Shown here piece by piece: positions 2,097-61,491 of a stretch of 64,000 nt of DNA. A program made the position numbers and the translations under genes. The notes under the pieces were generated by a model. It was not told the origin of the DNA. It ran no database searches and saw only the letters and a program-made list of their open reading frames with translations. The stretch lies in contig JBAQNN010000002.1 of NCBI GenBank assembly GCA_049303835.1, positions 94,492 to 158,491 on the forward strand, in the 5' to 3' direction. Position 1 is the stretch's first letter; each line of letters begins with the position of its first letter. This DNA comes from Minisyncoccia bacterium (lineage in GTDB: Bacteria; Patescibacteriota; Minisyncoccia; Phycocordibacterales; UBA9973).

Positions 2097-2939
2097 ATGC
2101 CAGAATTACCGGAAGTTGAAACTACCAAGAGAGGTCTAGAAAAGACCATTTTGGGGTTGGCAATAAAAGACGTGTGGACTGACTTATCTACAGCAGATAA
2201 ACGCAAAAGCGACACTGTCGCCAATCCAAAATATTTTAAAGTTTTTAAAAAAGAAATTCTAAATAAAAAAGTAACTTCTATAGAAAGAAGGGCAAAAAAT
2301 ATTTTGATAAACCTGTCCGGAGACAAAACCATTCTAGTCCACATGAAGATGACCGGGTATCTTTTTTACGGCAAAGACCCAAAAATTAAATTTGCGCACG
2401 TGATTTTTACTTTAAGTAACGGCTGCTATTTGGTTTTTTCCGACATGCGAAAGTTTGGAAAAATGACTTTACTGAGCCGTCGGCAGGAGGAAGTACTTTC
2501 AGGACTAGGCCCGGAACCATTGGAAAAACAATTCACGATTACAAATTTTAAATTACGAATTAGCAAAAAACCCAACGGTAAAATTAAAACTGTCCTGATG
2601 AATCAAAGTGTCCTCGCCGGTATTGGAAATATTTATTCCGATGAGATACTTTGGCGCGCCGGAGTATGTCCCGAGAGAAAAGTTTATAATCTAAAAGAAA
2701 CAGAAATTAAATTAATTTTTAAAGCCATTAAAGAGACACTCGCTAAGGGCATAGATTTTGGCGGAGATTCAATGTCGGATTATAAAAATATTTATGGCTT
2801 GCCGGGGAAATTTCAACTTCATCATCAGGCCTACAGACGTACGGGAGAAAAATGCCGAAAACCGCACTGTAAAGGCATCATAAAAAGAAAAGTCATAAAC
2901 GGTCGTAGCGCGCACTTTTGCTCAGTACATCAGAAATAA
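2097..2939 (+). CDS. mutM: formamidopyrimidine-DNA glycosylase (Fpg/MutM)
   Basis: 280 aa, N-terminal MPELPEVET, H2TH region, C-terminal zinc finger CxxC...C. Confidence 0.9.
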   Translation: MPELPEVETTKRGLEKTILGLAIKDVWTDLSTADKRKSDTVANPKYFKVFKKEILNKKVTSIERRAKNILINLSGDKTILVHMKMTGYLFYGKDPKIKFAHVIFTLSNGCYLVFSDMRKFGKMTLLSRRQEEVLSGLGPEPLEKQFTITNFKLRISKKPNGKIKTVLMNQSVLAGIGNIYSDEILWRAGVCPERKVYNLKETEIKLIFKAIKETLAKGIDFGGDSMSDYKNIYGLPGKFQLHHQAYRRTGEKCRKPHCKGIIKRKVINGRSAHFCSVHQK

Positions 2940-2984: not shown

Positions 2985-3464
2985 TTAAATTTTTAGCATT
3001 CCAAAGAGTGCCACACCCAAGGCTACCGAGACATTTAGTGATTCCTTTTTTCCACGCATTGGAATCTCAGCAACAATATCGCACTTTTTTAAAATATTCT
3101 TTGGTATACCTGTCACTTCCGCCCCGACAATGAACGCGTTTCTATTTTGTAACTTTACTTTTTTGTAATCAATAGACTTTTTATCTTGTTCTATGCCAAT
3201 AATTAAATATTTTTCTTTCTTTAATTTAGTGAGTAATTGTAAAATATTTTTCTTCTGTTCCCATTTCACAAATTCTTCCGCCCCGAGCGCAGACTTTGCC
3301 AAGTCTCCTCTCTTCCTACCGAAACGATCCAGCGGCGTAGGCGTGTACCCCGTCAAATAAATCTTATCTATCCCCGCCGCATCCGCCGTGCGAAACATCG
3401 CTCCGACATTTTCCACACTTCGTATGTCATTTAATATTAAAATGTTTTTTTGATTCATAATCAT
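2985..3464 (-). CDS. SpoU/TrmH-family RNA 2'-O-methyltransferase
   Basis: 159 aa, NVGAMFRTADAAG and IPMRG..ESLNVSVA motifs of the SPOUT class. 4-nt overlap with uvrC. Confidence 0.8.
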   Translation of the reverse strand: MIMNQKNILILNDIRSVENVGAMFRTADAAGIDKIYLTGYTPTPLDRFGRKRGDLAKSALGAEEFVKWEQKKNILQLLTKLKKEKYLIIGIEQDKKSIDYKKVKLQNRNAFIVGAEVTGIPKNILKKCDIVAEIPMRGKKESLNVSVALGVALFGMLKI

Positions 3465-4690
3465 TTTAGAAAGTTTCTATTCCTCATATTTTTATGATAA
3501 GCGATAGCAAAGCGGTGAGATTCACTGTTTGCTAATAAAATTTCTTTTTTATATTTCAACCCAAACTCTCTATCCCCCATTATTGCTCTGGCTTTATGAT
3601 GTTCATCTTTTACAACTGAGACTACCGGGATATTTATTTTTAATTTATTTAAAATTTTTCTAGCAATATTTATTTGCGCCATACCGCCATCCACCACTAT
3701 CAAATTCGGGTAAGTCCATTCTGTGTGGGCAAGGCGTCTTTCCAATACTTCTTTCAAGGCTCCAGTATCGTTCGCATCAGTTTGCGTTCTAATTTTAAAT
3801 TTTTTATATTCATTTTTTACCACTTCCCCATCTTCCATCACCACCATGACCCCCACCATATTTTTGCCACCCATATGCGCAATATCATAAGCCTCTATAC
3901 GAGCTCCTGAAACAAGAAAATTTTTATTCGTGTGGGCCCCGCCCGGTACTCCGGGAAGGGAGGAACGAGAAAAATTTTCTTGTTTCAGGAGTGCCACATC
4001 GTTTATGTGCTTCAGTGCAAACATTTGTCTCTTTATTTCCCCCGCTTTCTCAAATTCCTGCTTTTTAGCATACTCTTGCATTTCTTTTTTAAGATTTTTA
4101 AAAATTCTTTTCTTTTTACCCTCAAAAAACAAAATAATATTTTTTATATTTTGTTTATATAATTTTTTATCGTTCAAATCAGGAACCAGGTTTATCTGTT
4201 TATAAAATTCCAAATAGTTCTTGCTTTTCTCGTCCAAAAATGGAAAAATCCTTCGTACTATTTTTAAAGCTTCTCTGAGTTGGGAGCCATTCGGGTAAGG
4301 TCCAAAAACGTTCTTTTCATTTTTTAAATTTTTTCCTCTAACAATAATTACTTTTGGAAGTTGTTCGTCTGTGACACAAACATAATTAAAACTTTTATCC
4401 GATTTTTCTTTAGTATTATACTTCGGCTGATGTTTTTTAATGAGTTTTGCTTCCAGAATAAGCGCTTCCAAGACACTGTCTGTGATCTGCCATTTTATTT
4501 TATCCGCCTTAAAAACCATATCCACTAAGATGGGTCCCCTCGTCTGTATCAAGTCTTTCCCAAAATAACTTCTCACCCTATCTTTAAGCGACGTAGCTTT
4601 GCCAATGTAAATGATTTTCCCTTTTTCTAAGAAAAAATAGACACCGGAATTATCAGGTATTTTAAATTTTTTTAGATTTTTACTATTCAT
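3461..4690 (-). CDS. uvrC: excinuclease ABC subunit C (short form, no C-terminal HhH)
   Basis: 409 aa, GIY-YIG (GVYFF...IYIGKA), UVR domain (EFEKAGEIKRQ), then the IEAYDIAHMGG endonuclease region. Confidence 0.85.
   Translation of the reverse strand: MNSKNLKKFKIPDNSGVYFFLEKGKIIYIGKATSLKDRVRSYFGKDLIQTRGPILVDMVFKADKIKWQITDSVLEALILEAKLIKKHQPKYNTKEKSDKSFNYVCVTDEQLPKVIIVRGKNLKNEKNVFGPYPNGSQLREALKIVRRIFPFLDEKSKNYLEFYKQINLVPDLNDKKLYKQNIKNIILFFEGKKKRIFKNLKKEMQEYAKKQEFEKAGEIKRQMFALKHINDVALLKQENFSRSSLPGVPGGAHTNKNFLVSGARIEAYDIAHMGGKNMVGVMVVMEDGEVVKNEYKKFKIRTQTDANDTGALKEVLERRLAHTEWTYPNLIVVDGGMAQINIARKILNKLKINIPVVSVVKDEHHKARAIMGDREFGLKYKKEILLANSESHRFAIAYHKNMRNRNFLK
3904..3991. repeat. in-frame hairpin insertion inside uvrC (22-bp perfect stem, GC-rich core)
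   Basis: 3904-3925 CTCCTGAAACAAGAAAATTTTT is the exact reverse complement of 3970-3991. The core contains CCCGG-TACT-CCGGG. Confidence 0.7.
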
Positions 4691-4691
4691 A

Positions 4692-7358
4692 TTATCTTCT
4701 TAAAACTTTTTTAAGGTATTTACCTGTATGAGATTTGCTATTATTGGCGACTTCTTCCGGAGTTCCTTTGGCTACAATATTTCCTCCTTTCACTCCACCC
4801 TCAGGTCCAATATCTATAATGTAATCTGAGCTTTTAATAATATCAAGGTTGTGTTCTATGAGAACAACGGTATTGCCTTTGGAAACCAGTTTATTTAAAA
4901 CTTCTAAAAGCTTTTGTACGTCATCATAATGAAGCCCGACTGTCGGCTCATCTAAAAGGTAAATAGTTTTTTCTAAATGCGGACGATAAAGTTCGCTTGA
5001 GATTTTTACCCTCTGTGCTTCCCCTCCGGATAGCGTCGTCGCTGGTTGTCCAATCTCAAGATATCCTAGACCCACATCCATCAAAGTCTGTAGCCTGTCA
5101 GAAACTGCTGGAATATCTTTAAAAAATTCCAATCCTTTTTCCACCGTCATACGAAGCACTTCATAAATATTTTTCTTCTTATATTTTACAGTAAGAGTTT
5201 CTTTATCAAAACGCTTTCCTCCACACACATCACAAGTCACATAAACCGTCGGCAAAAAATGCATCTCTACGGCAATTTCTCCATTACCCTCACAAGCTTC
5301 ACAACGTCCGCCCTTCACATTGAAAGAAAAACGGTTTGCTTTCCAGCCTCGCAATCGTGCTTCTTCTGTAGAAGCGAAAAGATCTCGAATATGCGTAAAA
5401 GCACCAGTATAAGTGGCTATATTTGATCTAGGAGTCCTGCCTATTGGTGACTGATCAATCAATATCGCGCGAGAAAGATACTCCGTACCAGAAAATGAAG
5501 AACAGTTAGATACCTGCGCTGTGCGATATTTTCTTTCATAACGCGCCTGTAAATTTTTATAAAGAATTTCATACATAAAAGAACTTTTACCAGAACCAGA
5601 AACTCCAGTGATGGATGTCATCACTCCGAGGGGCACTTCCACATTCATGTTGTTTATATTAAAAATTTTTCCCCCACTTACCCTAAGCGCACCCTTGGCT
5701 TGTCGTCTTTTTTCCGGAACTTCTATTTTTATTTCTTCCCGTAAATAAGCGAGAGTTCTAGAATTATTTACATTCTTTTTGGCAGTTAATAAATCCTCTA
5801 AATAACCGGAAGCTATCACCTCTCCACCGTGCACTCCTGCCTTAGGTCCGATATCCACAATATAATCAGAAGCATAGATAGTGTCTTCATCATGTTCCAC
5901 GATCAAAATTGTATTCCCTAAATCACGAAGATTTTGAAGAGTTTTAATTAATCTATCATTGTCTCGCTGGTGAAGACCTATCGTGGGTTCATCTAATACA
6001 TAAAGCGCACCGACCAACCTAGAACCAAGCTGGGAGGCCAGACGGATGCGTTGCGCTTCTCCCCCAGAGAGCGTGTTGGCCTTACGAGACAGTTGCAGAT
6101 AGTCCAAACCGACATCCAACATAAACTGGAGCCTAGCTTCTATCTCCCTCACCACCGGCACAGATATTTCTTTCTCTTGTGGGGAAAGTTTTAAATTCTT
6201 AAAGAAGTCATGCGCATCTTTAATGGAGAGCGAAGACAATTCCAAGATATTTATTTTTTTGTTTTTATCCGCTTCTAAAAATACATTGAGAGCTTCGGGA
6301 CGCAGTCTGGCACCATGACAAGTATCACACGGCTCATCTCCCATAAAATATTTTGAACCCAAACCATTACATTCCGGACAAGCCCCATAGGGAGAATTAA
6401 AAGAAAACAGCCTCGGCTCAACTTCCGGAAAAGAAAAGCCGTCATTTTTACAAGCAAATTTTGAGGACATAATAAATTCATTATCTCCGATCTTGATAGT
6501 AACCAGTCCGTCGGATTCAATAAGCGTTCGCTCTATCGCCTCGGATAAACGCATCCTACTTGCTTCTTTGTCATCAACAAACTCATGCACCGCAAAACTA
6601 TCTACTAGAATATCTATGTTGTGAGCTTTGTTTTTAGAGAGAGTAATTTGTTCTCGCAGTTTTTTCATCGCGCCATCCAAACGGATTTCGGCAAAACCTT
6701 TGCCAAGTAAATCATAAAGCATTTGGTAATATTCCCCTTTCCTCCCACGAACTACTGGTGAAAAAATACTAATTTCTGTTTCATCAAACTCCACCCCCAT
6801 CACTTTCCTCACATTCTTTTTTGGAGTTCGGGAAGAAGAATTTTGAACGGGAAAGGTTCCAGCCGGAGGCTGGAGTAATCCGGAAAAATTCTTCTTCCCG
6901 AACTCTCCCACTTTTTCCAAAACAAAATTCAAAATTTCTTCATTGGAAAGTTTTTTAATTTCCTCTCCACACAAAGGGCAATGCGGATGTCCGATGCGCG
7001 CATACATCACCCGCAAATAATCATAAATTTCTGTGATAGTAGCCACAGTGGAACGTGGGTTATTTGAACGAGATTTTTGGTCAATAGAAATTGCCGGTGA
7101 AAGACCGGTAATCTCATCCACATCTGGTTTCGGCATTTGATTTAAAAATTGTCGCGCGTAAGAAGACAGGGATTCCACATATCTCCTTTGCCCTTCCGCA
7201 AAGATAGTGTCAAAAGCCAAGGATGATTTTCCAGACCCGGAGACACCGGTAATAACCACCATCTTATTTCGTGGCATCTCCACGTTTATATTCTTTAAGT
7301 TATGGGTCCGCGCCCCCTTAACTACTATTTTATCTATATTTTTCTCTTGTTTTGTCAT
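4692..7358 (-). CDS. uvrA: excinuclease ABC subunit A
   Basis: Two ABC modules (GVSGSGKSS twice, LSGGEAQR twice) and zinc modules. I prefer the internal start [11 protein letters not shown] at 7358 over the track start at 7394. Confidence 0.9.
6824..6905. repeat. in-frame hairpin insertion inside uvrA (21-bp perfect stem, GC-rich core)
   Basis: 6824-6844 GAGTTCGGGAAGAAGAATTTT is the exact reverse complement of 6885-6905. Inner hairpin CCAGCC-GGA-GGCTGG at 6859-6873. Confidence 0.7.
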
Positions 7359-11559: not shown

Positions 11560-14016
11560 CTACTTTACTTCTCCCAAATTTTTCCCTGAACCAGAGTGCA
11601 CCAGAAGAGGGACATCTGTTTTAAAATGAAGATATGACCGCAAGAGTACCCCCTCCATGGCTTCTTTGATTATTTTATCGGCTGTATCCAATACACCGTC
11701 TTCGGTCTCATATACTAATTCGTCGTGAATTTGTAAAATCAAATGAACCTTATCCAACATACCGGCGTTTTTTAGATCCTCTTCCGCATACCTTATGGCT
11801 AATTTAATAATATCAGCTGCTGTACCCTGTATCGGTGCGTTTGTGGCCGTTCGCTCAGCCATATTTTTTAAAAAAGGAATTCTGGAGTTAATGTTTGGGA
11901 AATAACGCCTACGACCAAATAGAGTTTCCGTATAAGAATGTTTTTCGGCAAAAACTTTTACTCCATTTAAATAGTCCCTCACTCCCCTAAACTGATGAAA
12001 ATAATTATCGTAAAATTTTTGAGCTTCTTCGCGAGTACCTCCCAGATTTTTACGCAAGGCCGAAACCCCCATGCCATAAATAATACCGAAGTTTATAACT
12101 TTTGCCTTCCGACGCATCTCGCTGTCCACTTTCTCTATCGGAACTCCGAAAACAAATGAAGCGACCCCGGCATGAATATCTTTTTTTTCTTTAAAAACTT
12201 GGGTCATCTTTTCGTCCAAAGAAAGCATCGCTGCGACCCGCAATTCAATCTGGCTATAATCAAAAGCAATAAGTTTGTGCCCTTTTTCTGCGATAAAACC
12301 ATCCCTGATTTTTTTCCCCAATTCTGTTTTTATTGGTAAATTTTGTAGATTTGGATCCTGAGATGAAAATCTGCCGGTGGTAGAGCCATTTTGAATAAAC
12401 TTAGCGTGTAGGCGACCATCATCACCCGCCATTTTAGGGATAACATCAATATAAGTGGAAAGTAATTTCTGTAATTCCCGGTAAGCCATTATTTCTTTTA
12501 TTATTTCATTCTCTTCTTCCAATTCTTCCAATACCGAAATCTTGGTAGAAAAACCTCCACTGGCATTTTTCTTTGCCTTGTTTTTACCTGGAGATTTTAT
12601 TCCTAATTTATTAAAAAGTATTTCTCCCAGTTGTTTGGGAGAATTGATATTGAATTCTGTTCCGGCCTGCTGGTATATTTTTTTTGTTAAAATATCCAAT
12701 TCTCTGTGATATTCTTCTGATAACTTTTCAAAATATTTTTTATCTATCAAGACCCCATGGTCCTCCATTTTTTTTACGATGGGTATAATCGGTTTTTCTA
12801 TTTCTTCATAAACTTTTTCAAGATTTTGTTCTTTTAATTTTTTGAAAATATGCTCATAGGCTGTTTCAAAAGATTCGGTATGCGCATAAAGTAAAATATC
12901 TTCCAGATTTGGATTAGAAATATCAGAATTGATAATCCATAAAGCAATACTAGCTTCTTGTAGTTTTTTTGAGTCCACAGAATCCTGGCGAGAGTGCTCG
13001 GAGGAATCTTCGCTACTGGCAGAAAAACCTTGCTCCTCCAGGACAGATTGCGAATGACGGAGAGCATCTTCGCCAGGATTCTGACTTTCAAAAAAGTTTC
13101 TTAAACGTCCAAGCAAACTTCTGAATTCAAATTGGGCGAAAACTTCTTCAATTTTTTTGAAATCAGCATTTTCCCAAAAAGTCTTCTCTGGCAAAGAGAA
13201 ATTTATTGGCGCATCTGTACGGATGGTCGCCAGTGTTTTTGAAAATAAAGCTTCTTCTTCGTTATTTTTTAATAGCTCAATCATCCTAGGACTAATGCCC
13301 ACTTTTTTAAATTGTAATTCGTAATTTGTACTTCGTAATTGCTTATAAATTTCTTCTATGGTGCCAAAATTTACAATCAAGTTTTCAGCCGTCTTTTCAC
13401 CTATACCTTTGATACCAATAATATTGTCAGATGGATCTCCTCGTAATCCCTTGTAGTCTGGTAAAAGCTTTGGTTTAAAACCAAAACGTTTCACTACCGC
13501 ATCCTCATCATATAAAATAGTATCGTTGATTCCCTTCTTTAGGGTATATATTTGAACTTTCTTATCATCCACCAACTGCATGGTGTCCATATCTCCGGAA
13601 GCAATAACAATATTCAGACTTCTGTCTTTTTTGTATTTCTCAACGATAGTTCCCAACACATCATCCGCCTCAAACCCGGGAGCATCGTAAATAGGAATAC
13701 TGAAAGCCTCAAAAATCTTCCGAGAGTTTTGTAATTGCACAATGAGTGCTTCGTCGGCTTTTACCCGACCGGCCTTATACGCATCATAAGCTTCGTGTCT
13801 AAAGGTCTTTTGTGGCAAATCATAGCAAGCGACGATATAGTCTGGCTTTAGCTCGGTAATTATTTTCATCAACATGCTGGAAAGTCCGTATAGTGCCCCG
13901 GTAGGTTCACCTTTTCCAGACAAAAATTCCGGCAAGGCGTGGTAAGCACGATGAATGATGGCATGAGCATCCAACAGGACCAATTTTTTATTTTTCTGTT
14001 CTTCTGTTTTAGGCAT
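11560..14016 (-). CDS. polA: DNA polymerase I
   Basis: 818 aa, 5' nuclease domain (LLDAHAIIHRAYHA), pol motifs DYSQIELRV, RRKAKVINFGIIYG, QIHDELV. Confidence 0.95.
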   Translation of the reverse strand: MPKTEEQKNKKLVLLDAHAIIHRAYHALPEFLSGKGEPTGALYGLSSMLMKIITELKPDYIVACYDLPQKTFRHEAYDAYKAGRVKADEALIVQLQNSRKIFEAFSIPIYDAPGFEADDVLGTIVEKYKKDRSLNIVIASGDMDTMQLVDDKKVQIYTLKKGINDTILYDEDAVVKRFGFKPKLLPDYKGLRGDPSDNIIGIKGIGEKTAENLIVNFGTIEEIYKQLRSTNYELQFKKVGISPRMIELLKNNEEEALFSKTLATIRTDAPINFSLPEKTFWENADFKKIEEVFAQFEFRSLLGRLRNFFESQNPGEDALRHSQSVLEEQGFSASSEDSSEHSRQDSVDSKKLQEASIALWIINSDISNPNLEDILLYAHTESFETAYEHIFKKLKEQNLEKVYEEIEKPIIPIVKKMEDHGVLIDKKYFEKLSEEYHRELDILTKKIYQQAGTEFNINSPKQLGEILFNKLGIKSPGKNKAKKNASGGFSTKISVLEELEEENEIIKEIMAYRELQKLLSTYIDVIPKMAGDDGRLHAKFIQNGSTTGRFSSQDPNLQNLPIKTELGKKIRDGFIAEKGHKLIAFDYSQIELRVAAMLSLDEKMTQVFKEKKDIHAGVASFVFGVPIEKVDSEMRRKAKVINFGIIYGMGVSALRKNLGGTREEAQKFYDNYFHQFRGVRDYLNGVKVFAEKHSYTETLFGRRRYFPNINSRIPFLKNMAERTATNAPIQGTAADIIKLAIRYAEEDLKNAGMLDKVHLILQIHDELVYETEDGVLDTADKIIKEAMEGVLLRSYLHFKTDVPLLVHSGSGKNLGEVK
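12978..13083. repeat. hairpin-forming GC-richer segment inside polA linker
   Basis: 12978-12991 CAGAATCCTGGCGA is the exact reverse complement of 13070-13083. Stem extends by TGCTC/GAGCA; inner GGAGGA (13000-13005) pairs with TCCTCC (13034-13039). Confidence 0.55.
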
Positions 14017-22875: not shown

Positions 22876-23973
22876 TTATCTATTCATTGGCATAATGAGA
22901 TAGGTAAAAGAAGAATCAGAGACCGGGGATACAACCATAGGACTTCCTGTGCCGGAGAGTTTTATAGAAACACTATCAGTGACAATTGACTGAAAACAGT
23001 CCAAAAAGTATTTATAGTTGAAAGAAAGTTCTATGTTTTCACCGTTTATAACGGCATCTAAATAAGTTTTATTTTCTCCCACATCGTTGTTGGAAGATGA
23101 AAACTCTAAAATCTTTTCTTTTGGAATAATCTTTAAATTAACTTGATTAAACTTGTCTGAAAAGATATTAGACAACTTTAAGGCATTCAATAAATCTTGT
23201 TTGAGAACCACTACCTCCGTAGTTGTGTTTTTGGGAATAATTTGACGATAATCTGGAAAAATACCGTCAATTATTCGTGAAGTTAAGTAAATGTTATCAG
23301 AAGAAAGTGAAATTTGATTTTTATTAAAACAAACCTTTAGGACCCCCTGAAATTCCCCAAAAACCTTCAAAATTTCAGCTATGTTTTTATAAGGAACAAG
23401 AATACCTGAAATTTCCTCAACCCCCTTCGCTTTTACCTTTTTTTCGGCCAACCTAAAAGAATCTGTTGAAACAAAAACCAAATTATCTCCGTTGGTATAT
23501 ATAAAAACACTTGAAATTTCTGGCTTTATATCGGAAACAGAGGAGCTATAATAAACTGATTTAATTCCCTCAATAAGTTTTTTTGATTCTATTTCAAAAC
23601 TTGTTCCCGTCACAGTGGGAATGGTTGGAAAATCTTCGTGAGGCTGACATTTTAATCTTATTTGACTTTTTTTTGTTTTAATTAAAAGATTTTCATCCTT
23701 TTTTTCCAACTGAACATTTTCATTTTGAGAAACGTTGGAAAAAATAGCGTTTAGCACCGAACCTGAGATAGCCAAAGTTCCTTCTTTTTCTATTTTAGCT
23801 GAAATTTCAACTTCAATACCCAAGTTTAAGTTGGTGGATCTCATTTTTAATGATTTACCCGAAGCAATCAATAAAATTGAGCTTAAAACGGGAAGGGTTA
23901 GATTTTTGCCGGTAATTCTCTCTACTTGAGATATTCCATTTTTGAGTTTTTCAACCGAACATTCTATTTTCAT
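22876..23973 (-). CDS. dnaN: DNA polymerase III beta sliding clamp
   Basis: 365 aa, three-domain clamp pattern, MKIECSVEKL..., position next to dnaA. Confidence 0.9.
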   Translation of the reverse strand: MKIECSVEKLKNGISQVERITGKNLTLPVLSSILLIASGKSLKMRSTNLNLGIEVEISAKIEKEGTLAISGSVLNAIFSNVSQNENVQLEKKDENLLIKTKKSQIRLKCQPHEDFPTIPTVTGTSFEIESKKLIEGIKSVYYSSSVSDIKPEISSVFIYTNGDNLVFVSTDSFRLAEKKVKAKGVEEISGILVPYKNIAEILKVFGEFQGVLKVCFNKNQISLSSDNIYLTSRIIDGIFPDYRQIIPKNTTTEVVVLKQDLLNALKLSNIFSDKFNQVNLKIIPKEKILEFSSSNNDVGENKTYLDAVINGENIELSFNYKYFLDCFQSIVTDSVSIKLSGTGSPMVVSPVSDSSFTYLIMPMNR

Positions 23974-24212
23974 ATATTTGTTTATATCTTATATAAATAA
24001 ATTATTAGTAATATTAGTGTTGTTAATAAGTGGATAATTATTTTTATATTTATTAAATATACTTATTTTTAATTTATAAACTGAACTTAAATCTAATAAC
24101 TTTTTGTCTTATGTTTATGAAAATATTTTTTATTTTTAATTTTTCTTTTTATTCGCGTTAATTAACAGATTTTGTCTGGTTTGTTATATTGTTTTTCCCT
24201 ACTTATAAACAG
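23974..24212. other. candidate oriC / DNA unwinding region (very AT-rich dnaA-dnaN spacer)
   Basis: 239-bp spacer, by eye >80% AT with A/T tracts. One near-consensus DnaA box at 24029-24037 (TTATCCACT on the minus strand). Confidence 0.5.
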
Positions 24213-25556
24213 CTATTTAAACATAATTCTTATTTGTTCCAACTCTTGCAGCAACGAAGAATCATTTTTTAAGTCAGTTTTTATTTTTAAACAAGAGTGG
24301 ATGACTGTCGTGTGATCCTTTCCCCCCAATTTTTGTCCAATTAGCGGATAAGATACATTAAAGTCTTCTCGGAGTAGATACATGACTACTTGTCTTGCTC
24401 TGACTATTTCCTTTTTTCTTGTTTTCTCATAAATTGAAGATTCTTCCAATTTATAATATTCACTCACTATCTTTACTACATCCTTTATGGCCATGTTTTT
24501 CTTTGGTCTAAGGTTGTTTTTGAGTAGATTTTTTACCTCTACAAGCGTCAATGGTTTGTTTTTTAGTTTATATTGGCAAACAATAAGGTTAAGACTTCCT
24601 TCCAGCTCCCTGATGTTTCCCTGAACTGCCCCCGCCACGTAATCTATCACCTCCTCAGCCAAATCAACATTTAATTCACGGAGTTTAACCTTTAAAATAG
24701 CCAGACGTGACTCATATTCAGGCTCAGATATGTCAACGATCATACCAGCAGCAAAACGAGACTTTAGTCTATCCGCCAGCTCTGGAATGTAGTTTGGGTG
24801 TTTGTCTGAAGAAAAGATAATCTGTTTGTTGTTTTCATAAAAAGTGTTAAATGTGTGAAAAAGTTCTTCTTGAATTTTTTCCATTTTTCCAATGAATTGG
24901 ATATCGTCTATTATTAACAGGTCGTATTTACGATATTTTTCTTTAAAAGAATTTGCTTTGTTGTTTTGGAGTGAATTTACAAAATCTGTGGCAAATTTTT
25001 CCAAGGTCATATAGTGTACCTTTTTATTTGGATATTTTTCTTTTATTGAGTTTCCCACCGCCTGAATCAAGTGTGTTTTTCCTAGTCCAGTACCTCCATA
25101 AATAAAAAATGGGTTATATTTTGTTCCAGGAGAGTCTATTATTGCCTGGGCTGCAGCATAAGCGAGCTCATTGAAAGTTCCGACGATAAACGAATTGAAT
25201 TGATAGCGTGGATTTAGGTTGTCTTCCAGATTTATGTATAAATCTTTTAGGGGTAGTTCTTTTTCTATGGTTATTTCATTTATTGGCGCTGGTTCTTGTT
25301 TTACATTTTCTGTTTTAACAATAGTATATTCTACGGCACGCATATTTTCATAGGCATCGGCAATGGTTTTGGTTATCAATTTGTGATATTTATTGATAAG
25401 CCAGTCGCGGACGAACTCGTTTGGCACCCCAATATAAACAATACCGGTATCTTCTTTTATGATGGATGTGTTTTTAAACCAGGTACTAAAATTTGCTTTT
25501 GATATACCAGATTCTATTTCCATTAGACAACTTTTCCACAACTCTTTTGTATTCAT
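24213..25556 (-). CDS. dnaA: chromosomal replication initiator DnaA
   Basis: 447 aa, AAA+ Walker A GGTGLGKTH, Walker B LLIIDDIQF, C-terminal DNA-binding HTH (GGKDHTTVIH). Confidence 0.95.
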   Translation of the reverse strand: MNTKELWKSCLMEIESGISKANFSTWFKNTSIIKEDTGIVYIGVPNEFVRDWLINKYHKLITKTIADAYENMRAVEYTIVKTENVKQEPAPINEITIEKELPLKDLYINLEDNLNPRYQFNSFIVGTFNELAYAAAQAIIDSPGTKYNPFFIYGGTGLGKTHLIQAVGNSIKEKYPNKKVHYMTLEKFATDFVNSLQNNKANSFKEKYRKYDLLIIDDIQFIGKMEKIQEELFHTFNTFYENNKQIIFSSDKHPNYIPELADRLKSRFAAGMIVDISEPEYESRLAILKVKLRELNVDLAEEVIDYVAGAVQGNIRELEGSLNLIVCQYKLKNKPLTLVEVKNLLKNNLRPKKNMAIKDVVKIVSEYYKLEESSIYEKTRKKEIVRARQVVMYLLREDFNVSYPLIGQKLGGKDHTTVIHSCLKIKTDLKNDSSLLQELEQIRIMFK

Positions 25557-29016: not shown

Positions 29017-29994
29017 TTATCTGCCATCCACTGACCAATGCCAAGGTTCGGATGGTAAGTTAGAAAGACCGTATTTACCGGCATTTGCTTGTAGCCACAC
29101 AAAGCACTTATTATCGCGGGTTTGAATAAATTTTCCATCACACTGTAGATCAAATGCCTTGCCATGGTTGTGATTTGATTGACCTGGAAGAGCTGTGGGT
29201 GGATTACATTTTGCACTTGCGTTTTCGTAGTCTCCATTACAATATTTTATTCTTAATTGTTTCTGTTGTTCTGTAGATCTATATCCCCCACCTGTTATGT
29301 TTAATCCGGCACTTTTTGATGCAACTAGCATGGCGTTAATGTTTGAAACAATATCTTTACATGCAAACATGCTAATTTGGGTTTTTACCACTCCGGCGCT
29401 ACATCCAGATGTAACTCCTGGGGGGTTCCCAGAATCGCTTGCTATTGCGTCTGCTAGTGTTACCTCTACTGTTATTTTTTCTAAACTACTCAGATCAGTC
29501 TTTAGAATATCTGGATTTATTTGGTTTAAGATTGTCCAAGCGCCCAAAGCGAGCACAAGTCCAAAAATAGCGCCAGTGATTCTATGTTTACCGTTTTCTT
29601 TATTAGATATCAGTTCACTAGTCATATACTCCAAACCACCCACCACTATCATTATCACAGCCAACACAGCGCATATACCGATGAAAATACGTATCATTAT
29701 GTTCAAATACTCACCTATTTTGGAATTTTCTCCCTCTGCGCTTGTCGGGTCAAAGGTTTTTAGTTGTCCATCTTCACACCCAGGAGTACCTTTTTCACAA
29801 GGCAGAGGGGCTAAAAAATTATATTTCAAATCATTTTCTTGTGTAGCATTTACGCAGGACACCCCATCAGGAGCAAGTATTTTATCTCCTGTGCATTCAA
29901 CTGCCAAAACAGAGTTGGTGGAGACAAAAAAACTAAAGATTAAAAAAACCAATTGTAATGAGACTATTATCTTTTTAAGCATATCTTTTTTCAT
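29017..29994 (-). CDS. fusion protein: VirB2/TrbC-like T4SS pilin domain + C-terminal M15 (VanY-like) peptidoglycan peptidase
   Basis: 325 aa: signal peptide, YNFLAPLPC motif, two hydrophobic helices (IRIFIGICAVLAVIMIVVGG, ITGAIFGLVLALGAWTILNQI), then GYRSTEQQ...SNHNHGKAFDL...EPWHWS. Confidence 0.6.
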   Translation of the reverse strand: MKKDMLKKIIVSLQLVFLIFSFFVSTNSVLAVECTGDKILAPDGVSCVNATQENDLKYNFLAPLPCEKGTPGCEDGQLKTFDPTSAEGENSKIGEYLNIMIRIFIGICAVLAVIMIVVGGLEYMTSELISNKENGKHRITGAIFGLVLALGAWTILNQINPDILKTDLSSLEKITVEVTLADAIASDSGNPPGVTSGCSAGVVKTQISMFACKDIVSNINAMLVASKSAGLNITGGGYRSTEQQKQLRIKYCNGDYENASAKCNPPTALPGQSNHNHGKAFDLQCDGKFIQTRDNKCFVWLQANAGKYGLSNLPSEPWHWSVDGR

Positions 29995-30980
29995 TAAAAT
30001 TCTACTCTTATTTCTTTACTTGTACCACCGAAAATTTTAAAGGTATCCTCAATCTCCAATTTTATTATAGATGTTCCCGACTGGCCCGACTGGACTGCGA
30101 GGGGCATAATATTCTTTTTATAAGCTGGCACAGCGACTTGATAATCGTTGATAAACCAATTAAATACGAGAGTCGGTATTCGTATTTCTTTAGGTGAGAT
30201 AAAATAAGGTACAGCCTCTATAATTTCATTTCCTTGTATCTTGTGTCCATCAGACAGAATCGTCTCCCAGACAGTTCCCGTAGTCGGGTTCTTTCTGTAA
30301 AATAGAATTTTTGGTTCTACTGTCCCCACAGTAATATTTGCAGCAGAAGAATATTTTTGATCTGTGGTGGAGGCCGTCACTCCTATAGTGCTAGTATCTT
30401 CCAGGTAATCATCTACATAGCTAAAAGAGTTTTTGCCATAACCGGAGGCATCTTGTTTGTTTGTATAGTCTCTCTTCCAAGCATAAACGAGGTTTTTAGA
30501 ATTTACTGTTTGGGTTCCATTTCTAATTTCTGGCATGGCCACTATTTTTATCTCGCTTCCGGTCGTCGGCATAGCCTTGCCACGATAAAAAGGTGGCACA
30601 TGAGAATCGTTTGCTTGCCAAAGGAGAGTCATAATGGATGGGCGGATCGTTATTCTCTTGTCTATAGTTCCGTCCGGTAGAGAGATAGAAGCTACGATGC
30701 TGGTCTCTTTTCCTGCCTCCGGAGCTGTAAGAGAAAAAGACTTTTTACCGATTCCAGACAAAACATTTTTCCCGTCCACAGACCATACGATGAGGACACT
30801 ATCCAGATTGCTGACATAGCTATTCAAGTTGATATTTACATTTTCATTTGGGCCAGGATTTTCCGGAGAGATGTCCACCAAGATACTACTTGAAGAAACA
30901 GCGGTTACTTCGGAAGGGAGAAAAATCCCTGTCAATAAAAGTGTTACTATTAAATATGAAAGTAAAAATCTTAATTGCAT
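29994..30980 (-). CDS. secreted protein of unknown function (T4SS-like operon)
   Basis: 328 aa, N-terminal signal/anchor. Its stop overlaps the start of the next gene by 1 nt. No motif recognised. Confidence 0.6.
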   Translation of the reverse strand: MQLRFLLSYLIVTLLLTGIFLPSEVTAVSSSSILVDISPENPGPNENVNINLNSYVSNLDSVLIVWSVDGKNVLSGIGKKSFSLTAPEAGKETSIVASISLPDGTIDKRITIRPSIMTLLWQANDSHVPPFYRGKAMPTTGSEIKIVAMPEIRNGTQTVNSKNLVYAWKRDYTNKQDASGYGKNSFSYVDDYLEDTSTIGVTASTTDQKYSSAANITVGTVEPKILFYRKNPTTGTVWETILSDGHKIQGNEIIEAVPYFISPKEIRIPTLVFNWFINDYQVAVPAYKKNIMPLAVQSGQSGTSIIKLEIEDTFKIFGGTSKEIRVEF

Positions 30981-31012
30981 AACTCAGCCTAATTATATCA
31001 TATCTGCTTTAC

Positions 31013-31047
31013 AACTTTATAACTTTCAACTTTTGAACTTTATAACT
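31013..31047. repeat. five degenerate 7-8-nt direct repeats AACTTTNN (AAAGTT in mRNA sense)
   Basis: acAACTTTatAACTTTcAACTTTtgAACTTTatAACTa directly after the virB4 stop. Followed in mRNA sense by TGATATAAT. Confidence 0.6.
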
Positions 31048-32893
31048 ATTGTTTACCCTCAGTTTCCGCTCTCTCCTGCTCCTCCTTGGCTTTTCTGTTT
31101 GAAAGTATTTGGGAAGGGTCGGAAGTGATTATCTGGTCTTCAGTATAAGAAGAAATGACTTTTATGGCTACATGCTTTAGGCCGGCAAAGAATATTCCCT
31201 CCCCGAGGCCTGACTCCAAAAGCAGATATTTTTCTTCATCCGTCAGGTTGAAGGTTTTTTGTAAAATATCTATAGTGGTCGGTGATTGTTTAAGGAGAAG
31301 TTGAATAGAAGAGTTTGTAATGATGGGGACACCATAAGGAGATTTCATAAAGTCGGCGGCGTCTTGGGTGATGGTGGAAAGACCGAGATAATATTTTCTA
31401 CCTCTTTTGGCGATAGAGTATAAGAATGAAGCGGTGTCTTCAGATTTCATCATCCACCAAGCCTCATCTACTACCAAGAGGCGCTTTTTCAAATTTTTTC
31501 GTACGGTATTCCAGATATAATGCATGATGATATACATGGCGACGGGTTTTAACTCGTCTTCCATGTCGCGGACGGAAAATACTACGAATTTTTTATTGAT
31601 ATCCACATTGGACGGTCTGTTTAAGAATGTCGCCCAAGAACCCCTCGTATATTTGGCTAGTCTGGTGACGATTGAATCACTTCCATCCATCCCTCCGAGC
31701 ACCATTTCAAAATCTGACAGAAGAGGAGGTTCAATGTTTGAGAAATCAGATTCAGGAGTGATATCTTTCATCGCATAAGTTTCGGAAATAGCTCGGTCTA
31801 CCATTGAATCTTCTTCAGGGGTGAGTCCGCCTAGCATCAATCTGAAAAGCCCTACCAAGTTTATGATATTTGAACGGAGGACATCTTCGGCTGTTTCGCC
31901 TTCGTGAGGAATAGGTAAATCAAAAGGATTGATGTGGTGATCGGAAGAAAGAGAAATATTGAAATATCTTCCACCGACCGCCTCTGACAAGAACTCGTAT
32001 TCCCTTTCCGGATCTATCACTATGACATCAACATCAAACATTAAAGATCTCAAAATTTCTAGCTTAGTGGCATACGATTTTCCGGAGCCGGACTTGGCAA
32101 AGGTCACGGAGTTGTAATTCTCTAGTGAAAATCTATCAAAGATGACTAGGCTGGAATTGTGCCTGTTGATGCCGTAAAGTATTCCTTTGTTGGAAGTCAG
32201 GTCAAAAGAAATAAATGGGAATACACTACTAAGTGGTTCAGAATTCAACTTCTGATGAATACCAAGTATGTCTGTATTTATGGGTATGACGCTCTTAAAA
32301 CCGTCTTCTTGTTGGAAGAGAGCCGGTTTGATATAGATGAGTTTTGATTCAAGGATTGATTTTATCTCATTTTCTATTTTGAAAAGTTCCAACTCGTTGT
32401 CGGCATAAATGGTGATGTAAATACCCACATCAAACATTTTTTCTTGCGCTTGGATCAGATTATTGCGCAGGCCCTCTAGGTCTTGGTAGGCAGTATCAAG
32501 CATAGGGTCGCGCACCATACCCTTACTCTCTCGTACACTTATCTGACTCTGCACCTCGGCGACTTTTTTCTGAAATTGTCTCAAGACCAGAGAAGTGTCT
32601 ATCGGATGAATAAAAATTGAAATATCAAAAACTTTATCCAGATTGATTATAGGAGAGAACCAATTGTCTGTCAGAAATCTAGGATAGGAAATGATGAAAA
32701 AAGTACGAGCGATTTTATCTCCCAAGCTTATGGATTTAGACGATATTTTCAGAGCTGAAGGAGCGATGACATCTTGGAGCTCCAGGGTGGCGGATTGGTA
32801 GATTTCTTCCGGCATCACTGCCAAGACGGAAGCTCTCACTTCCTTTTCCTCCCCTCCTTTTTGTCCACCTAATAATTTTTTTAAAAAGTCCAT
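31046..32893 (-). CDS. virB4: VirB4/TraE-type T4SS ATPase, C-terminal 3/4 (split gene, part 2)
   Basis: 615 aa, Walker A AKSGSGKSY, Walker B LLVVDEAWWMM, ITQDAADF. The N-terminus matches the DxIAPS...yP region that sits at about aa 215 of single-chain Gram-positive VirB4 homologues. Confidence 0.85.
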   Translation of the reverse strand: MDFLKKLLGGQKGGEEKEVRASVLAVMPEEIYQSATLELQDVIAPSALKISSKSISLGDKIARTFFIISYPRFLTDNWFSPIINLDKVFDISIFIHPIDTSLVLRQFQKKVAEVQSQISVRESKGMVRDPMLDTAYQDLEGLRNNLIQAQEKMFDVGIYITIYADNELELFKIENEIKSILESKLIYIKPALFQQEDGFKSVIPINTDILGIHQKLNSEPLSSVFPFISFDLTSNKGILYGINRHNSSLVIFDRFSLENYNSVTFAKSGSGKSYATKLEILRSLMFDVDVIVIDPEREYEFLSEAVGGRYFNISLSSDHHINPFDLPIPHEGETAEDVLRSNIINLVGLFRLMLGGLTPEEDSMVDRAISETYAMKDITPESDFSNIEPPLLSDFEMVLGGMDGSDSIVTRLAKYTRGSWATFLNRPSNVDINKKFVVFSVRDMEDELKPVAMYIIMHYIWNTVRKNLKKRLLVVDEAWWMMKSEDTASFLYSIAKRGRKYYLGLSTITQDAADFMKSPYGVPIITNSSIQLLLKQSPTTIDILQKTFNLTDEEKYLLLESGLGEGIFFAGLKHVAIKVISSYTEDQIITSDPSQILSNRKAKEEQERAETEGKQ

Positions 32894-32900
32894 AATTGTA

Positions 32901-32975
32901 TTTAGGCTTTAGCTTTTAGGCTCTAGGCTCTAGCTTTTGAGTTTGCTAATGCCTAAGGCCTAGTTGCCTAGCGCC
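32901..32975. repeat. heptad hairpin element copy A, (NNTAGGC)n - loop - (GCCTANN)n
   Basis: TTTAGGC TTTAGC TTTTAGGC TCTAGGC TCTAGC / ttttgagttt / GCTAAT GCCTAAG GCCTAGT TGCCTAGC GCC. It fills the gap between the two virB4 parts. Confidence 0.8.
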
Positions 32976-33614
32976 CTACTCTATTTTAATCTTACCCTCC
33001 AATTCTCCGGGGTTGAAAACTTTATAAAATACTTCCACTACTTCTTCGGTATTCAGCTGGGCCGAATTTATTCCACAACGAGACAATCCTTGCTGGATGA
33101 CAGCTACCCTCTCTTCTAGTTGAGATCTCTTCTCTTCAAAATCTATCTGTTTTGCGGCTCGCACTTCTTCTGAATTCTTTTTGGAAAATAGCTTTCCCAA
33201 TATCCCGGAATCTGATTTTAAAGTTGTACGTGAATATGGTATTACAATAAAGAAGTTTTTTGTCATGATACTGACAGATTCAGTAAAGCTTCTTATAAAC
33301 TCTATATATTCCCTAGTTTGCAACTTGATCAACGGCTCATTTTGCACTTTTACTCTGTTTTCTAAAAGGAGTAAATAAGGTCTGATGTCCAGCCTTCTGG
33401 ATTGGACTGATATCTGTACCGGAAAATCCAAGGTGTTTAAAAAATTTTGAAATTGAAGAATGGTCGCATGTTGTTCATCGGAAGATTTCAAGGATAGGTT
33501 GACCGAGTTTGCGAGTACGATGGCTCGGAGCTCACCTTCTTTTAGCACGATGATGCCATCGCGTATCTCTTTGATTGGTATAAATTCTTGTGTTGCTTTT
33601 GCTTTTAATGCCAT
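32976..33614 (-). CDS. virB4: VirB4 N-terminal domain (split gene, part 1)
   Basis: 212 aa, ATQEFIPIKEIRDGIIVL...NLSLKSSDEQHATILQFQNFLNTLDFPVQI resembles the N-terminus of Tn916 Orf16/PrgJ-type VirB4 (recalled from memory). Confidence 0.65.
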   Translation of the reverse strand: MALKAKATQEFIPIKEIRDGIIVLKEGELRAIVLANSVNLSLKSSDEQHATILQFQNFLNTLDFPVQISVQSRRLDIRPYLLLLENRVKVQNEPLIKLQTREYIEFIRSFTESVSIMTKNFFIVIPYSRTTLKSDSGILGKLFSKKNSEEVRAAKQIDFEEKRSQLEERVAVIQQGLSRCGINSAQLNTEEVVEVFYKVFNPGELEGKIKIE

Positions 33615-33623
33615 AAATTTTTT

Positions 33624-33700
33624 CTAGGGCTTTAGGCTCTAGGCGTTAGGCTTTAGCTTTTGTTTCGCTAGAGCCTAGTGCCTAAGGCCTAGCTGCCTGC
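33624..33700. repeat. heptad hairpin element copy B
   Basis: CTAGGGC TTTAGGC TCTAGGC GTTAGGC TTTAGC / ttttgtttc / GCTAGA GCCTAGT GCCTAAG GCCTAGC TGCCTGC. The last 12 nt supply the end of the prgI-like ORF. Confidence 0.8.
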
Positions 33701-34129
33701 ATTTTTCTTTTTACTCAAATCAAGCACGTCCAAGCTCCAGGCCAAATCTCGCAACCTACTTCCATCCAATTTTGAACTGACATTTGGCAGTACTTCATTT
33801 TTATTTTCATCCATGTTTGTAGTTTGCGATTTATTATTTGCTACCCTACCGGTCTTCTTCTTCCAAATATAAAGTTTGTTTTGAGAAAAATATTTAAACC
33901 CTGCTTCAATCATGTTTATAAAAGGCTTATTGTTTGGTTTATAGAAAGTAAGAGCTAAAGAAAACCCGGCGATAATCAAAATAGGGATGGCGCTAAAGAC
34001 GAGCCCTAATAATTTATAAAGCACAAAACACAAACCTGCTCCGCCGGCCAAATAAGCAAACTCCCTAAAAGTAAAAGGGCCGAATATTTTATCTTCTATT
34101 TCTAAAAATTGTGGAACCTTGAATTGCAT
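33689..34129 (-). CDS. PrgI-family (VirB3-like) two-TM T4SS protein
   Basis: MQFKVPQFLEIEDKIFGPFTFREFAYL then two TM helices. I prefer the ATG at 34129 over the track GTG at 34141. Confidence 0.65.
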   Translation of the reverse strand: MQFKVPQFLEIEDKIFGPFTFREFAYLAGGAGLCFVLYKLLGLVFSAIPILIIAGFSLALTFYKPNNKPFINMIEAGFKYFSQNKLYIWKKKTGRVANNKSQTTNMDENKNEVLPNVSSKLDGSRLRDLAWSLDVLDLSKKKNAGS

Positions 34130-34140
34130 AAATACAGGCA

Positions 34141-34542
34141 CTAGGCTTTAGGCGCTAGGCTCTAGCTGAGAAATTAGTTTATTCAACATTTTCATAATTT
34201 CTTCTAATAAAGAACCCACTTTATTATAATCTAATTTTGCAGTTTTGGGTAATTTTTTAGATATTATTAGCTGAGTTTCTAGCTCCGCACCAGAAGCAAA
34301 GGCAATAAGTAAGAATCTTTTGAATTCTGGAATTCCTCCTCGCATTTTCCCTTCTGCAATATTAGAAGGTATGGATACTGCCGCCCTACGAATTTGTGAG
34401 GTTAAACCATAAATTTCTTCCTTCGAAAATTTGTCTGTGAGTTCATAAACTGCTATTACAAGCTCTATCGATTTTTGCCACACGACTAAATCTCTATATG
34501 TTTTCATGTGTTTTTTACTAGCGCCTAATGCCTAGAGCCTAG
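34141..34542 (-). mobile_element. heptad hairpin element copy C carrying a four-helix-bundle (IVS-type) gene in place of the loop
   Basis: Left arm 34141-34166: CTAGGC TTTAGGC GCTAGGC TCTAGC. Right arm 34518-34542: CTAGC GCCTAAT GCCTAGA GCCTAG. By hand pairing the arms form a ~26-bp helix around the ORF. Confidence 0.55.
34148..34507 (-). CDS. four-helix-bundle protein (23S rRNA intervening-sequence protein family)
   Basis: 119 aa, MKTYRDLVVWQKSIELVIAVYELT...SIPSNIAEG...AELETQLIIS, the signature pattern of this family. The last codons (LEPSA) are encoded by the repeat arm. Confidence 0.85.
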   Translation of the reverse strand: MKTYRDLVVWQKSIELVIAVYELTDKFSKEEIYGLTSQIRRAAVSIPSNIAEGKMRGGIPEFKRFLLIAFASGAELETQLIISKKLPKTAKLDYNKVGSLLEEIMKMLNKLISQLEPSA

Positions 34543-34548
34543 AAAATA

Positions 34549-35100: not shown

Positions 35101-35127
35101 AATATTTTTTATTAGAGCTGATAATTA

Positions 35128-61438: not shown

Positions 61439-61491
61439 AAATTTAACTGACGGGAGTAGTGGTAAAAATTAGCATATTAATTTCTAACGGG

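Follow-up and report, generated by a model that had tools for sequence, protein, structure and literature searches.

Mobile GC-rich hairpins that invade the coding genes of AT-rich genomes are represented by the GC clusters of yeast mitochondria and by the so-called "byp" elements. In bacteria, the closest described counterparts of the element analyzed here are the Rickettsia palindromic elements (RPEs), which, as summarized in PMC10969869 (citing Ogata 2000 and 2002), form several palindromic families that lie in frame in housekeeping genes and encode conserved peptides. Long perfect inverted repeats inside translated coding sequence were also described in the mitochondrial genes of Nematomorpha (PMC6649704), and inverted repeats are known to be generated, made perfect and lengthened by template switching in a single step (PMC8794818, PMC8604942, PMC13100816). 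In this work we analyzed a stretch of 64,000 nt of contig JBAQNN010000002.1 from a Minisyncoccia bacterium (hereafter "the window"; all coordinates are window positions), the uvrC gene of which contains a perfect palindrome. We consider it likely that this palindrome is a small non-autonomous mobile hairpin, here named type 1, which was inserted in frame and one arm of which was derived from the flank of the insertion site. In its likeness to the RPEs, it would belong to families of in-frame hairpins that occupy unrelated housekeeping genes of a reduced genome, with peptides at positions compatible with protein function, and no transposase is known for either group.

The two arms of the uvrC palindrome, CTCCTGAAACAAGAAAATTTTT at 3904-3925 and its exact reverse complement at 3970-3991, are 22 nt each, 100% complementary and separated by a 44-nt spacer, and the whole palindrome measures 88 bp. 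The GC content of this 44-nt core is 0.68, compared with 36-37% in the surrounding 2-kb blocks, and CCCGG-TACT-CCGGG is found within it at 3942-3955. When the window was shuffled 12 times, the maximum length of perfect inverted repeats (loop of at most 100 nt) was 10-13 nt, and none of at least 14 nt was obtained; under the same loop limit, the real window contains one perfect inverted repeat of 22 nt and seven of at least 14 nt. Since the shuffles never reached 14 nt, a chance origin of the uvrC palindrome is excluded. A preliminary description of the window had reported a 22-bp perfect repeat with a GC-rich core, in frame inside uvrC, and had judged it very unlikely by chance; the coordinates, the GC content and the reading frame agree with the former statement, and the shuffles with the latter. 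The folding energy of the hairpin was -51.8 kcal/mol as RNA (z = -7.6) and about -32 kcal/mol as DNA on either strand (z = -10 to -12). No Rfam family matched the region 3700-7100, either at the gathering threshold or at E <=1, and no signal of the promoter and terminator scan coincided with the element. The host gene and the parts of the element are the following:

3461-4690, minus strand: uvrC host gene, encoding a 409-aa short UvrC with GIY-YIG, UVR and RNase-H-like endonuclease domains (open reading frame and Pfam)
3980-3991, minus strand: outer 5' arm, in gene sense CTCCTGAAACAA, codons L-L-K-Q, native uvrC coding sequence (from the empty-site orthologue L001)
3970-3979, minus strand: 5' terminal repeat GAAAATTTTT, codons E-N-F, overlapping the native GAA AAT, with an ambiguous junction (copy alignment)
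3926-3969, minus strand: GC-rich 44-nt core, in sense ctcgttcctcccttcccggagtaccgggcggggcccacacgaat, encoding S-R-S-S-L-P-G-V-P-G-G-A-H-T-N (folding and alignment)
3942-3955, minus strand: apical hairpin, in gene sense CCCGG-AGTA-CCGGG, with a covarying stem (copy alignment)
3916-3925, minus strand: 3' terminal repeat, in sense AAAAATTTTC, codons K-N-F (copy alignment)
3904-3915, minus strand: outer 3' arm, in gene sense TTGTTTCAGGAG, codons L-V-S-G, copied in reverse complement from the native 5' flank and displacing native linker codons (from the empty site of L001)

The UvrC protein of the window is 100% identical to P0001, a protein of an NCBI metagenome-assembled genome (MAG) labelled "Minisyncoccia bacterium" (phylum Minisyncoccota, that is, Patescibacteria or candidate phyla radiation, CPR). 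The element segment is translated in frame as LLKQENFSRSSLPGVPGGAHTNKNFLVSGA and encodes approximately residues 236-265 of the inter-domain linker. Pfam places the UVR domain at residues 198-228 and UvrC_RNaseH_dom at residues 263-395, and thereby the element between both, where the preliminary description had located it. In the AlphaFold model of UvrC, residues 228-261 are coil with pLDDT <50; the model is poor overall (mean pLDDT 54.8) and supports only that the insert region is a low-confidence coil. According to the reading frame, the peptide would be translated with the gene as a Ser/Pro/Gly-rich loop of about 17 added residues, and the predicted insert-spanning peptides are NFSRSSLPGVPGG and KQENFSRSSLPGVPGG.

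The comparison with orthologues demonstrates that the hairpin is a polymorphic insertion and not a native part of UvrC. Among the 120 close UvrC homologues listed, protein length varies between 394 and 457 aa, and 20 of them were aligned. The peptide NFSRSSLPGVPGGxHTNKNF was present at the same linker position in P0002-P0005, and absent from P0006, P0007, P0070, P0079, P0102 and P0113. Apart from two indels, the filled P0005 and the empty P0007 share about 99% identity. The DNA of the empty allele L001 is CTT CTG AAA CAG GAA AAT, followed by AAA AAA GAA AAA AAC TTA TTC and then by AGA ATA GAA; in the filled allele L003, 72 nt replace the middle 21 nt and lengthen the gene by a net 51 nt (17 codons). 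The preliminary description had proposed an alignment with UvrC orthologues and a check of presence or absence in related genomes, both of which bear out its reading, and had named the same peptide without a hairpin as an observation that would speak against it. In the orthologues, the peptide was always accompanied by the hairpin, and P0006 and P0007 lacked the insert altogether; no orthologue with the peptide but without the hairpin was found among them.

Other small insertions were observed in the same protein. At approximately 2360-2385 of L003 (P0005, also P0014), a 24-nt in-frame mini-hairpin insertion, CCCGCC-AATTCA-GGGGCGGG, encodes LPANSGAG in the endonuclease domain of UvrC, and is absent from the ~99%-identical P0007. 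Further small UvrC indels, HLRHGVNGEGL and PARAGGG, occur in P0008 and P0010-P0014.

The part of the element that is common to different copies is shorter than the palindrome. A terminal repeat of about 9 nt, RAAAATTTY, adjoins the core in nearly all of the 20 type-1 copies described below, at all sites; beyond approximately 9 nt, the arms differ at each site and in each lineage. Read in gene sense, the left arm at the uvrC linker codes for LLKQEN, residues that are present in the empty allele L001, and an ALLKxE sequence is conserved in element-free UvrCs. The right arm encodes KNFLVSG, in place of the native linker, and follows the left-flank codons of its own lineage (CTCCTGAAACAAG... in the window, AATCCTGAAACAGG... 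in L002, GCTGAGAGAGG... in L016 and GCCTCACGAGAACAGG... in L011). As a result, amino-acid changes in the right arm (e.g. Leu to Pro) mirror changes that are synonymous in the left one. The left arm of L003 and L004 has meanwhile become CTA, and the right arm still complements CTG, which is the state of the empty allele; we regard this mismatch as a fossil of the copying event.

Three other sites with an empty or element-free reference gave the same picture. At a second insertion site in UvrC (site 2), the native L016 sequence is KDLAQKE followed directly by YAH, whereas the filled L005 sequence is KELQEKQ(NF...KNSAFP)YAE, with a native 5' arm. In UvrA, native EKIKNFEKK...KRKVMGV can be compared with EKVGEFGKK(NF...NSSSRTP) of the window, the left arm of which, EFGKK, resembles element-free UvrAs. 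The third site is in fpg, which in the window (gene at 2097-2939) is empty and which provided the cleanest empty/filled pair that we found:

2481-2498, plus strand: empty fpg target, CGG CAG GAG GAA then GTA CTT, with the junction after 2492 (by comparison with the filled L004)

The fpg gene of L004 contains a clean 75-nt insertion at exactly the empty point of the window, composed of an element of a sister family (type 2, see below) plus TTTTCCTCCTGCCGGGA, which is the reverse complement of the left flank. Although this element runs antisense to the gene, it is again the 5' arm of the gene that is native. The polarity of a native 5' arm and a copied 3' arm was therefore the same at 4/4 sites with a reference (uvrC linker, uvrC site 2, uvrA and fpg). 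As in template switching, one arm at each of the four sites is the reverse complement of adjacent sequence in the ancestral or empty allele, and the pairing is of the Watson-Crick type without an excess of G·U.

On the basis of these comparisons, the mobile unit is delimited as the ~44-nt core with short A/T-rich terminal repeats, about GAAAATTTT ... AAAATTTTC, and at least the outer 12 nt of the stem would not be carried along. Only part of the 22-nt stem thus belongs to the element. Its inner ~9-10 nt (GAAAATTTT) alone recur elsewhere, and the outer ~12 nt proved to be host LLKQ codons on one side and their reverse-complement copy on the other.

The core itself is dispersed over several genes. 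The strict core pattern gave 2 matches among 185,579 species genomes, both in Ca. Nomurabacteria, and a looser pattern gave 11 metagenome contigs. Pattern scans and orthologue loci, from independent assemblies, together yielded 20 distinct type-1 copies at at least 7 sites, namely the UvrC linker, UvrC site 2, UvrA, LeuRS, queuine tRNA-ribosyltransferase (TGT), an RluA-type pseudouridine synthase and one unidentified open reading frame (ORF; L021). At site 2, located after VRGxEL, the type-1 peptide and DNA were found in P0003, P0004, P0008, P0020 and P0025, and type 1 is carried there by L004, L005, L006, L007, L010, L019 and L020; the uvrC gene of the window is empty at this site (RGKNLKNEKNVFGPY, 4301-4339, minus strand). 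All 20 copies are in frame and stop-free, with the peptide NFSRSSLPGVPGGxHTxKNF. The covariance model detected one type-1 copy in the 64-kb window. Because the same core is found in several genes, it appears to be mobile, or at least to be copied between loci. No match to the type-1 or type-2 core was found in the viral contigs and the phage collection that were searched. A profile hidden Markov model of eight element peptides, compared with 1.84 billion cluster representatives, returned only 8 weak, multi-stretch matches and was uninformative, probably because close UvrCs are merged in clusters whose representative may lack the insert.

The alignment of the copies indicates that the constraint acts on nucleotides. 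Common to the type-1 copies are a 4-bp helix TCGT/ACGA that covaries to CCGC/GCGG, and an apical 5-bp helix capped by AGTA that occurs as CCCGG/CCGGG, CTCCG/TGGAG, CCTGG/CCAGG, CCTCG/CGAGG and CTCGG/CCGAG. The apical pairs 40-51, 41-50 and 42-49 show 5-7 double-sided changes each. Over the 20 copies, 90% of the cells are paired and 26/35 pairs are changed on both sides, values that were reached in 0/500 shuffles and to which no slid register came close. The unpaired core stretches TTCCTCCCTT and GGGnCCCAC are invariant, and columns 18-22 and 71-75 of alignment A2 are conserved in at least 90%. Where the stem covaries, the peptide shifts (PGVPG, LRVWS, LGVPS, PRVRG), and the third codon positions of the unpaired TCC TCC CTT are invariant; the amino acids thus vary with the stem while silent positions are fixed, which argues for a constraint on the nucleotides and not on the peptide. 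Moreover, among the window, L002 and L004, which were retrieved without pattern bias, the core is 96-98% identical, compared with 80-83% for the flanking uvrC DNA. The contiguous outer stems comprise 343 Watson-Crick pairs, 2 G·T, 6 A·C and 8 other mismatches. Since G·U pairs are almost absent, complementarity is kept in DNA and not in mRNA: on the transcribed strand, an RNA helix under selection is expected to contain many G·U and few A·C pairs, and a decaying DNA copy gives the pattern observed here.

Additional hairpins of the window have to be considered together with type 1:

6824-6905, minus strand: type 2 in uvrA, with 21-nt perfect arms, a 40-nt core and AATTTT termini (46.5 bits to the type-1 covariance model)
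42036-42133, minus strand: type 3 in rsmA/ksgA, in-frame hairpin with peptide ERTSSQRDGARKAIHQQVNMRGESE (-41.6 kcal/mol as RNA over the 123-nt segment 42016-42138)
45650-45759, minus strand: in-frame palindrome of ~110 nt, GC 65%, in a pcrA/uvrD-like helicase gene (43963-45990), with 12-nt perfect outer arms GGCGCAGAAAAT (-39.5 kcal/mol as DNA)
12978-13083, minus strand: in-frame imperfect palindrome in polA (11560-14016), with 22-nt arms that are 86% complementary, between the 5'-3' exonuclease and polymerase domains

Type 2 has the same architecture as type 1 and a different core. L008 and L010 carry the type-2 core in their uvrC linker, L004 (fpg) and L009 (leuS) carry it in antisense, and all type-2 copies are in frame. 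The type-3 peptide and hairpin also occupy the uvrC linker of L007 (P0008). The pcrA hairpin encodes GAENLLEWGLSQADEPRGSAPRARGDSDPRREVFSAP inside the N-terminal helicase domain, and the polA palindrome probably represents another family. The preliminary description had pointed to a likeness between the uvrC stem and those of the uvrA, pcrA and rsmA elements; all three are separate families with cores of their own, and uvrA alone clearly shares the A/T-rich terminus and the general architecture of type 1.

The same sites are used by different families and are subject to turnover. The uvrC linker carries type 1 (in the window and others), type 2 (L008, L010) or type 3 (L007), or is empty. The uvrA site carries type 1, type 2 and, as judged by the peptide alone, apparently at least two more insert types (P0129; P0133/P0142), which suggests that there are more families and that the site is a hot spot. 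Several copies are incomplete. In the uvrA gene of L011 (from ~4337 onward), 11-nt inverted arms, AACCTTGGGAA-gaagaattt-TTCCCAAGGTT, are separated by 9 nt and the core is missing, which looks like the result of a deletion between TTCC microhomologies. The site-2 copy of L004 has lost the 12-nt apical hairpin with the frame kept, and the type-2 copy in uvrA of L005 is decayed, with a doubly compensated AATCCT/AGGATT still visible. The patchy occupancy and the uncorrected fossil mismatches favour recurrent insertion and loss at permissive or hot sites over an ancient insertion followed by conversion. For the same reasons (the mismatches of L003/L004 and the patchy occupancy of sites), we consider it less likely that the arms are kept perfect by frequent arm-to-arm conversion in vertically inherited copies.

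Inserts observed at the UvrA site among P0129, P0133, P0142, P0157 and P0159 include NSARFILKGSDTDQNF and PSLGKEGAGGG...PPRPSGTPPSKGG, as well as ENSSREF, which may be a short footprint.

We propose the following course of events for type 1. The core would reach a new site through a trans-acting enzyme of the HUH/Y1 type, or another enzyme, encoded elsewhere; alternatively, it could arrive without a transposase, by ectopic template switching at GAA/AAAA microhomology, which would fit the recurrent GAA/AAA junction. After synthesis of the core and of the second terminal repeat, the nascent strand would fold on the hairpin of the element, and the polymerase would copy the upstream flank of its own strand over ~10-17 nt before returning to the original template. 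This intrastrand template switch would accompany insertion or follow it very shortly. Survival would be limited to products with an intact frame and a tolerable loop, and copies would be lost again by deletion. The frame in use is Ser/Pro/Gly-rich, and other core frames give FLVPPF, FLFVW or Cys-containing peptides; such a survival filter may account for the constant frame of type 1, and the insert peptide would then be tolerated rather than useful. We give about even chances to the specific proposal that the arms are made by snap-back synthesis at insertion, and our confidence in any particular mobilising enzyme is low. An origin by reverse transcription was rejected, since snap-back on cDNA would be expected to copy the 3' flank and not the 5' flank.

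It is important to mention the points that weigh against a mobile hairpin with a flank-derived arm. All independent type-1 sites share one orientation and one reading frame although 5/6 core frames are open, which is not predicted by simple random insertion, so that either selection on the peptide or a target correlated with the phase has to be assumed. The copy number appears low (~1-3 type-1 copies per fetched locus), and three of the sites lie within ~3 kb in uvrA-uvrC, so that the spread could be rare and partly local. The arm polarity rests on four sites only and is suggestive (two-sided p = 0.125). Parts of the core were fixed in the pattern by which the metagenome copies L011-L021 were found, so that core conservation appears higher there than it is, and translation of the insert is inferred from frame conservation. 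Finally, no transposase is encoded in the 64-kb window, only a XerC/D-like recombinase. The Y1 transposase gene of L008, described in the next paragraph, was rejected as the mobiliser, because tblastn found no homologue of it in the window and its flanking hairpins (CAGCAAGGGTAGTCCTTGCTG) are unrelated in sequence.

The gene in question (L008, 15510-16190, minus strand) encodes a PF01797 Y1 transposase of 226 aa, similar to IS200 and to the tyrosine transposases associated with repetitive extragenic palindromic sequences (REPs), the RAYTs. It is bordered on both sides by the hairpin CAGCAAGG-GTAG-TCCTTGCTG, and resembles a REP/RAYT unit.

Somewhat unlikely, in our opinion, is a classical enzyme-mobilised element, such as a miniature inverted-repeat transposable element (MITE), a REP or REPIN with its RAYT, or an IS200/IS605 derivative, in which the whole hairpin is moved and the match of the arms to the flank reflects a target preference. 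The conservation of unpaired core nucleotides at synonymous positions is what would be expected of a protein recognition site, GAA or AAG repeatedly precedes the left junction, three different cores make use of the same sites, and a related genome (L008) does contain a hairpin-flanked Y1_Tnp gene. Additionally, no target-site duplication of at least 5 nt was found, as is also the case for IS200/IS605; equally, no direct repeat of this length marks an enzymatic insertion, and the lack of a transposase in the window and the unrelated L008 hairpins count against this explanation too. The main difficulty is that the outer arms are site-specific and match the upstream codons of their own lineage, including synonymous variants (window, L002, L011, L013 and L016), and in the fpg pair the left arm is already there in the empty site. 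The elements are also intragenic and of low copy number, unlike REPs. Enzyme mobilisation could hold for the movement of the core, with the arms made separately.

The transposase-free route can be extended to a broader proposal, which we put forward as speculative and rather doubtful: Patescibacteria would harbour "copy-choice" hairpins, spread by ectopic template switching at A-rich microhomology and completed by snap-back that palindromises the 5' flank of the host. If this were true, new translated loops would arise recurrently in essential genes, at hot spots reused by several families. Ultra-small genomes would possess a built-in generator of protein insertions, and template-switch mutagenesis would be readable from sequence.

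A functional hairpin selected by the host, be it an mRNA pause between the UvrC domains, an RNase III or other regulatory site, or a DNA cruciform bound by a protein, is improbable. The covariation is indeed very strong, the core is more conserved than the surrounding coding sequence, and in UvrC the hairpins sit in linkers or at the borders of domains, in UvrA close to the UvrA_inter domain. However, the hairpin is present or absent between ~99%-identical proteins, the same core is found in unrelated genes, and type 2 exists in both orientations. The mRNA strand is not enriched in G·U (2 G·T against 6 A·C), unlike selected RNA helices, fossil mismatches were left uncorrected and copies decayed or were deleted, and neither the Rfam search nor the promoter and terminator scan gave a signal at the element.

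The high stability, -52 kcal/mol as RNA for a GC-rich hairpin in essential genes of an AT-rich genome, could suggest an untranslated insert that is removed from the message or skipped by the ribosome, in the manner of the GC-rich "byp" elements of Magnusiomyces mitochondria or T4 gene 60. This is very improbable, as all type-1 and type-2 copies and the partial deletions are in frame and stop-free, and the length changes are multiples of three (+51, +75, and -12 in L004), which would be needless if the insert were skipped.

Fold-back in amplified libraries can produce perfect palindromes, which the preliminary description had kept in mind, and the UvrC linker is variable in length, but both an assembly chimera and an ordinary lineage-specific linker can be dismissed for practical purposes, as independent assemblies (JGI, ENA, Logan and NCBI) place the element at the same codon, between flanks that have diverged and with arm differences that are compensated, and the same core occurs in five other proteins.

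Other features of the window were noted. A perfect 15-nt inverted repeat, ATCCCGTTAGAAATT, with a 35-nt AT-rich loop (61429-61493), extends from the end of the PNPase ORF (59303-61438) into the start of the ORF that follows (61459-62385). The genes dnaN and dnaA are located at 22.9-25.6 kb (22876-25556), and from their position the replication origin is probably at ~25.6-26.4 kb; the cumulative GC-skew minimum, at ~49 kb, is at odds with an origin near dnaA. A type-IV-secretion or pilus-like cluster, with a TraG-like ATPase, PrgI and a T4SS pilin/VanY, is found at 29-38 kb (29017-38127), and a gene for a 23S-rRNA-intervening-sequence protein at 34148-34507.

The mobile hairpin with a flank-derived arm can be compared with the systems known so far. 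With template-switch (quasipalindrome) mutations it shares a reverse-complement copy made in one event, perfect Watson-Crick arms without G·U intermediates, multi-base "compensatory" changes and a location inside coding sequence. Those mutations, however, involve local sequence only, whereas here the copying is seeded by a dispersed element whose core is common to different loci and genomes. The coding palindromes of Nematomorpha likewise have perfect arms within coding sequence, but there both arms encode conserved protein and no mobile core exists; here one arm overwrites or extends a variable linker around a conserved core.

Like type 1, REPs, REPINs with their RAYTs and the derivatives of IS200/IS605 are short and imperfect GC-rich hairpins in which unpaired nucleotides are conserved, and a target-site duplication is not evident in any of them. 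By analogy with them, single-stranded hairpin DNA is likely the active form. REPs and REPINs differ in being extragenic, in reaching tens to hundreds of copies, in having a GTAG-type motif and in flanking a RAYT gene, none of which was seen here: every type-1 copy with an identified host lies inside a coding gene, and no Y1 (PF01797) gene was flanked by the same hairpins. As regards IS200/IS605, the left junctions are mostly after GAA/AAG, a short motif that is common in AT-rich coding DNA. Classical MITEs have terminal inverted repeats, to which the ~9-nt RAAAATTTY corresponds. The type-1 elements are nevertheless not classical MITEs, because a target-site duplication is missing: the fpg pair has at most an ambiguous repeat of 2-4 nt, and the uvrC linker is a replacement. 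No autonomous insertion sequence with matching terminal repeats was found in the 64-kb window or in the fetched loci. The byps are also GC-rich hairpins in the coding genes of an AT-rich genome, but they are bypassed by the ribosome and free in frame, whereas every copy here is in frame, which implies that the insert is probably translated.

The inserts are of practical relevance, as they inflate and vary protein lengths in CPR MAGs, where they can be mistaken for assembly fold-backs or lineage-specific domains, and they mark permissive loops in conserved proteins. The construction of the stem can be followed in alleles of the same sites that are empty, filled, decayed or deleted, and this ties a mobile element to template-switch mutagenesis.

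The RPEs, which differ from the present elements in belonging to Alphaproteobacteria and in measuring ~100-150 bp, remain the nearest system; here the hosts are Patescibacteria, the shared unit is ~60 nt, the core is GC-rich in an AT-rich genome, and the copy number is apparently much lower. An outer stem that is a reverse-complement copy of the host 5' flank is, to our knowledge, not described for RPEs. With a Minisyncoccota/Nomurabacteria host and no match in Rfam, the type-1 elements are treated here as an analogue of the RPEs and not as a member of them, and relatedness in sequence is unlikely. Our literature search found no description of such elements in CPR/Patescibacteria. In-frame "coding palindromes" have so far been treated as a peculiarity of Rickettsia. 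With the CPR/Patescibacteria families in uvrA, uvrC, fpg, leuS, tgt, rsmA and probably also pcrA and polA, the phenomenon would have recurred in an unrelated lineage with reduced genomes, and we classify an RPE-like in-frame hairpin in Patescibacteria, with visible copying of the flank, as a new variation on the RPE theme.

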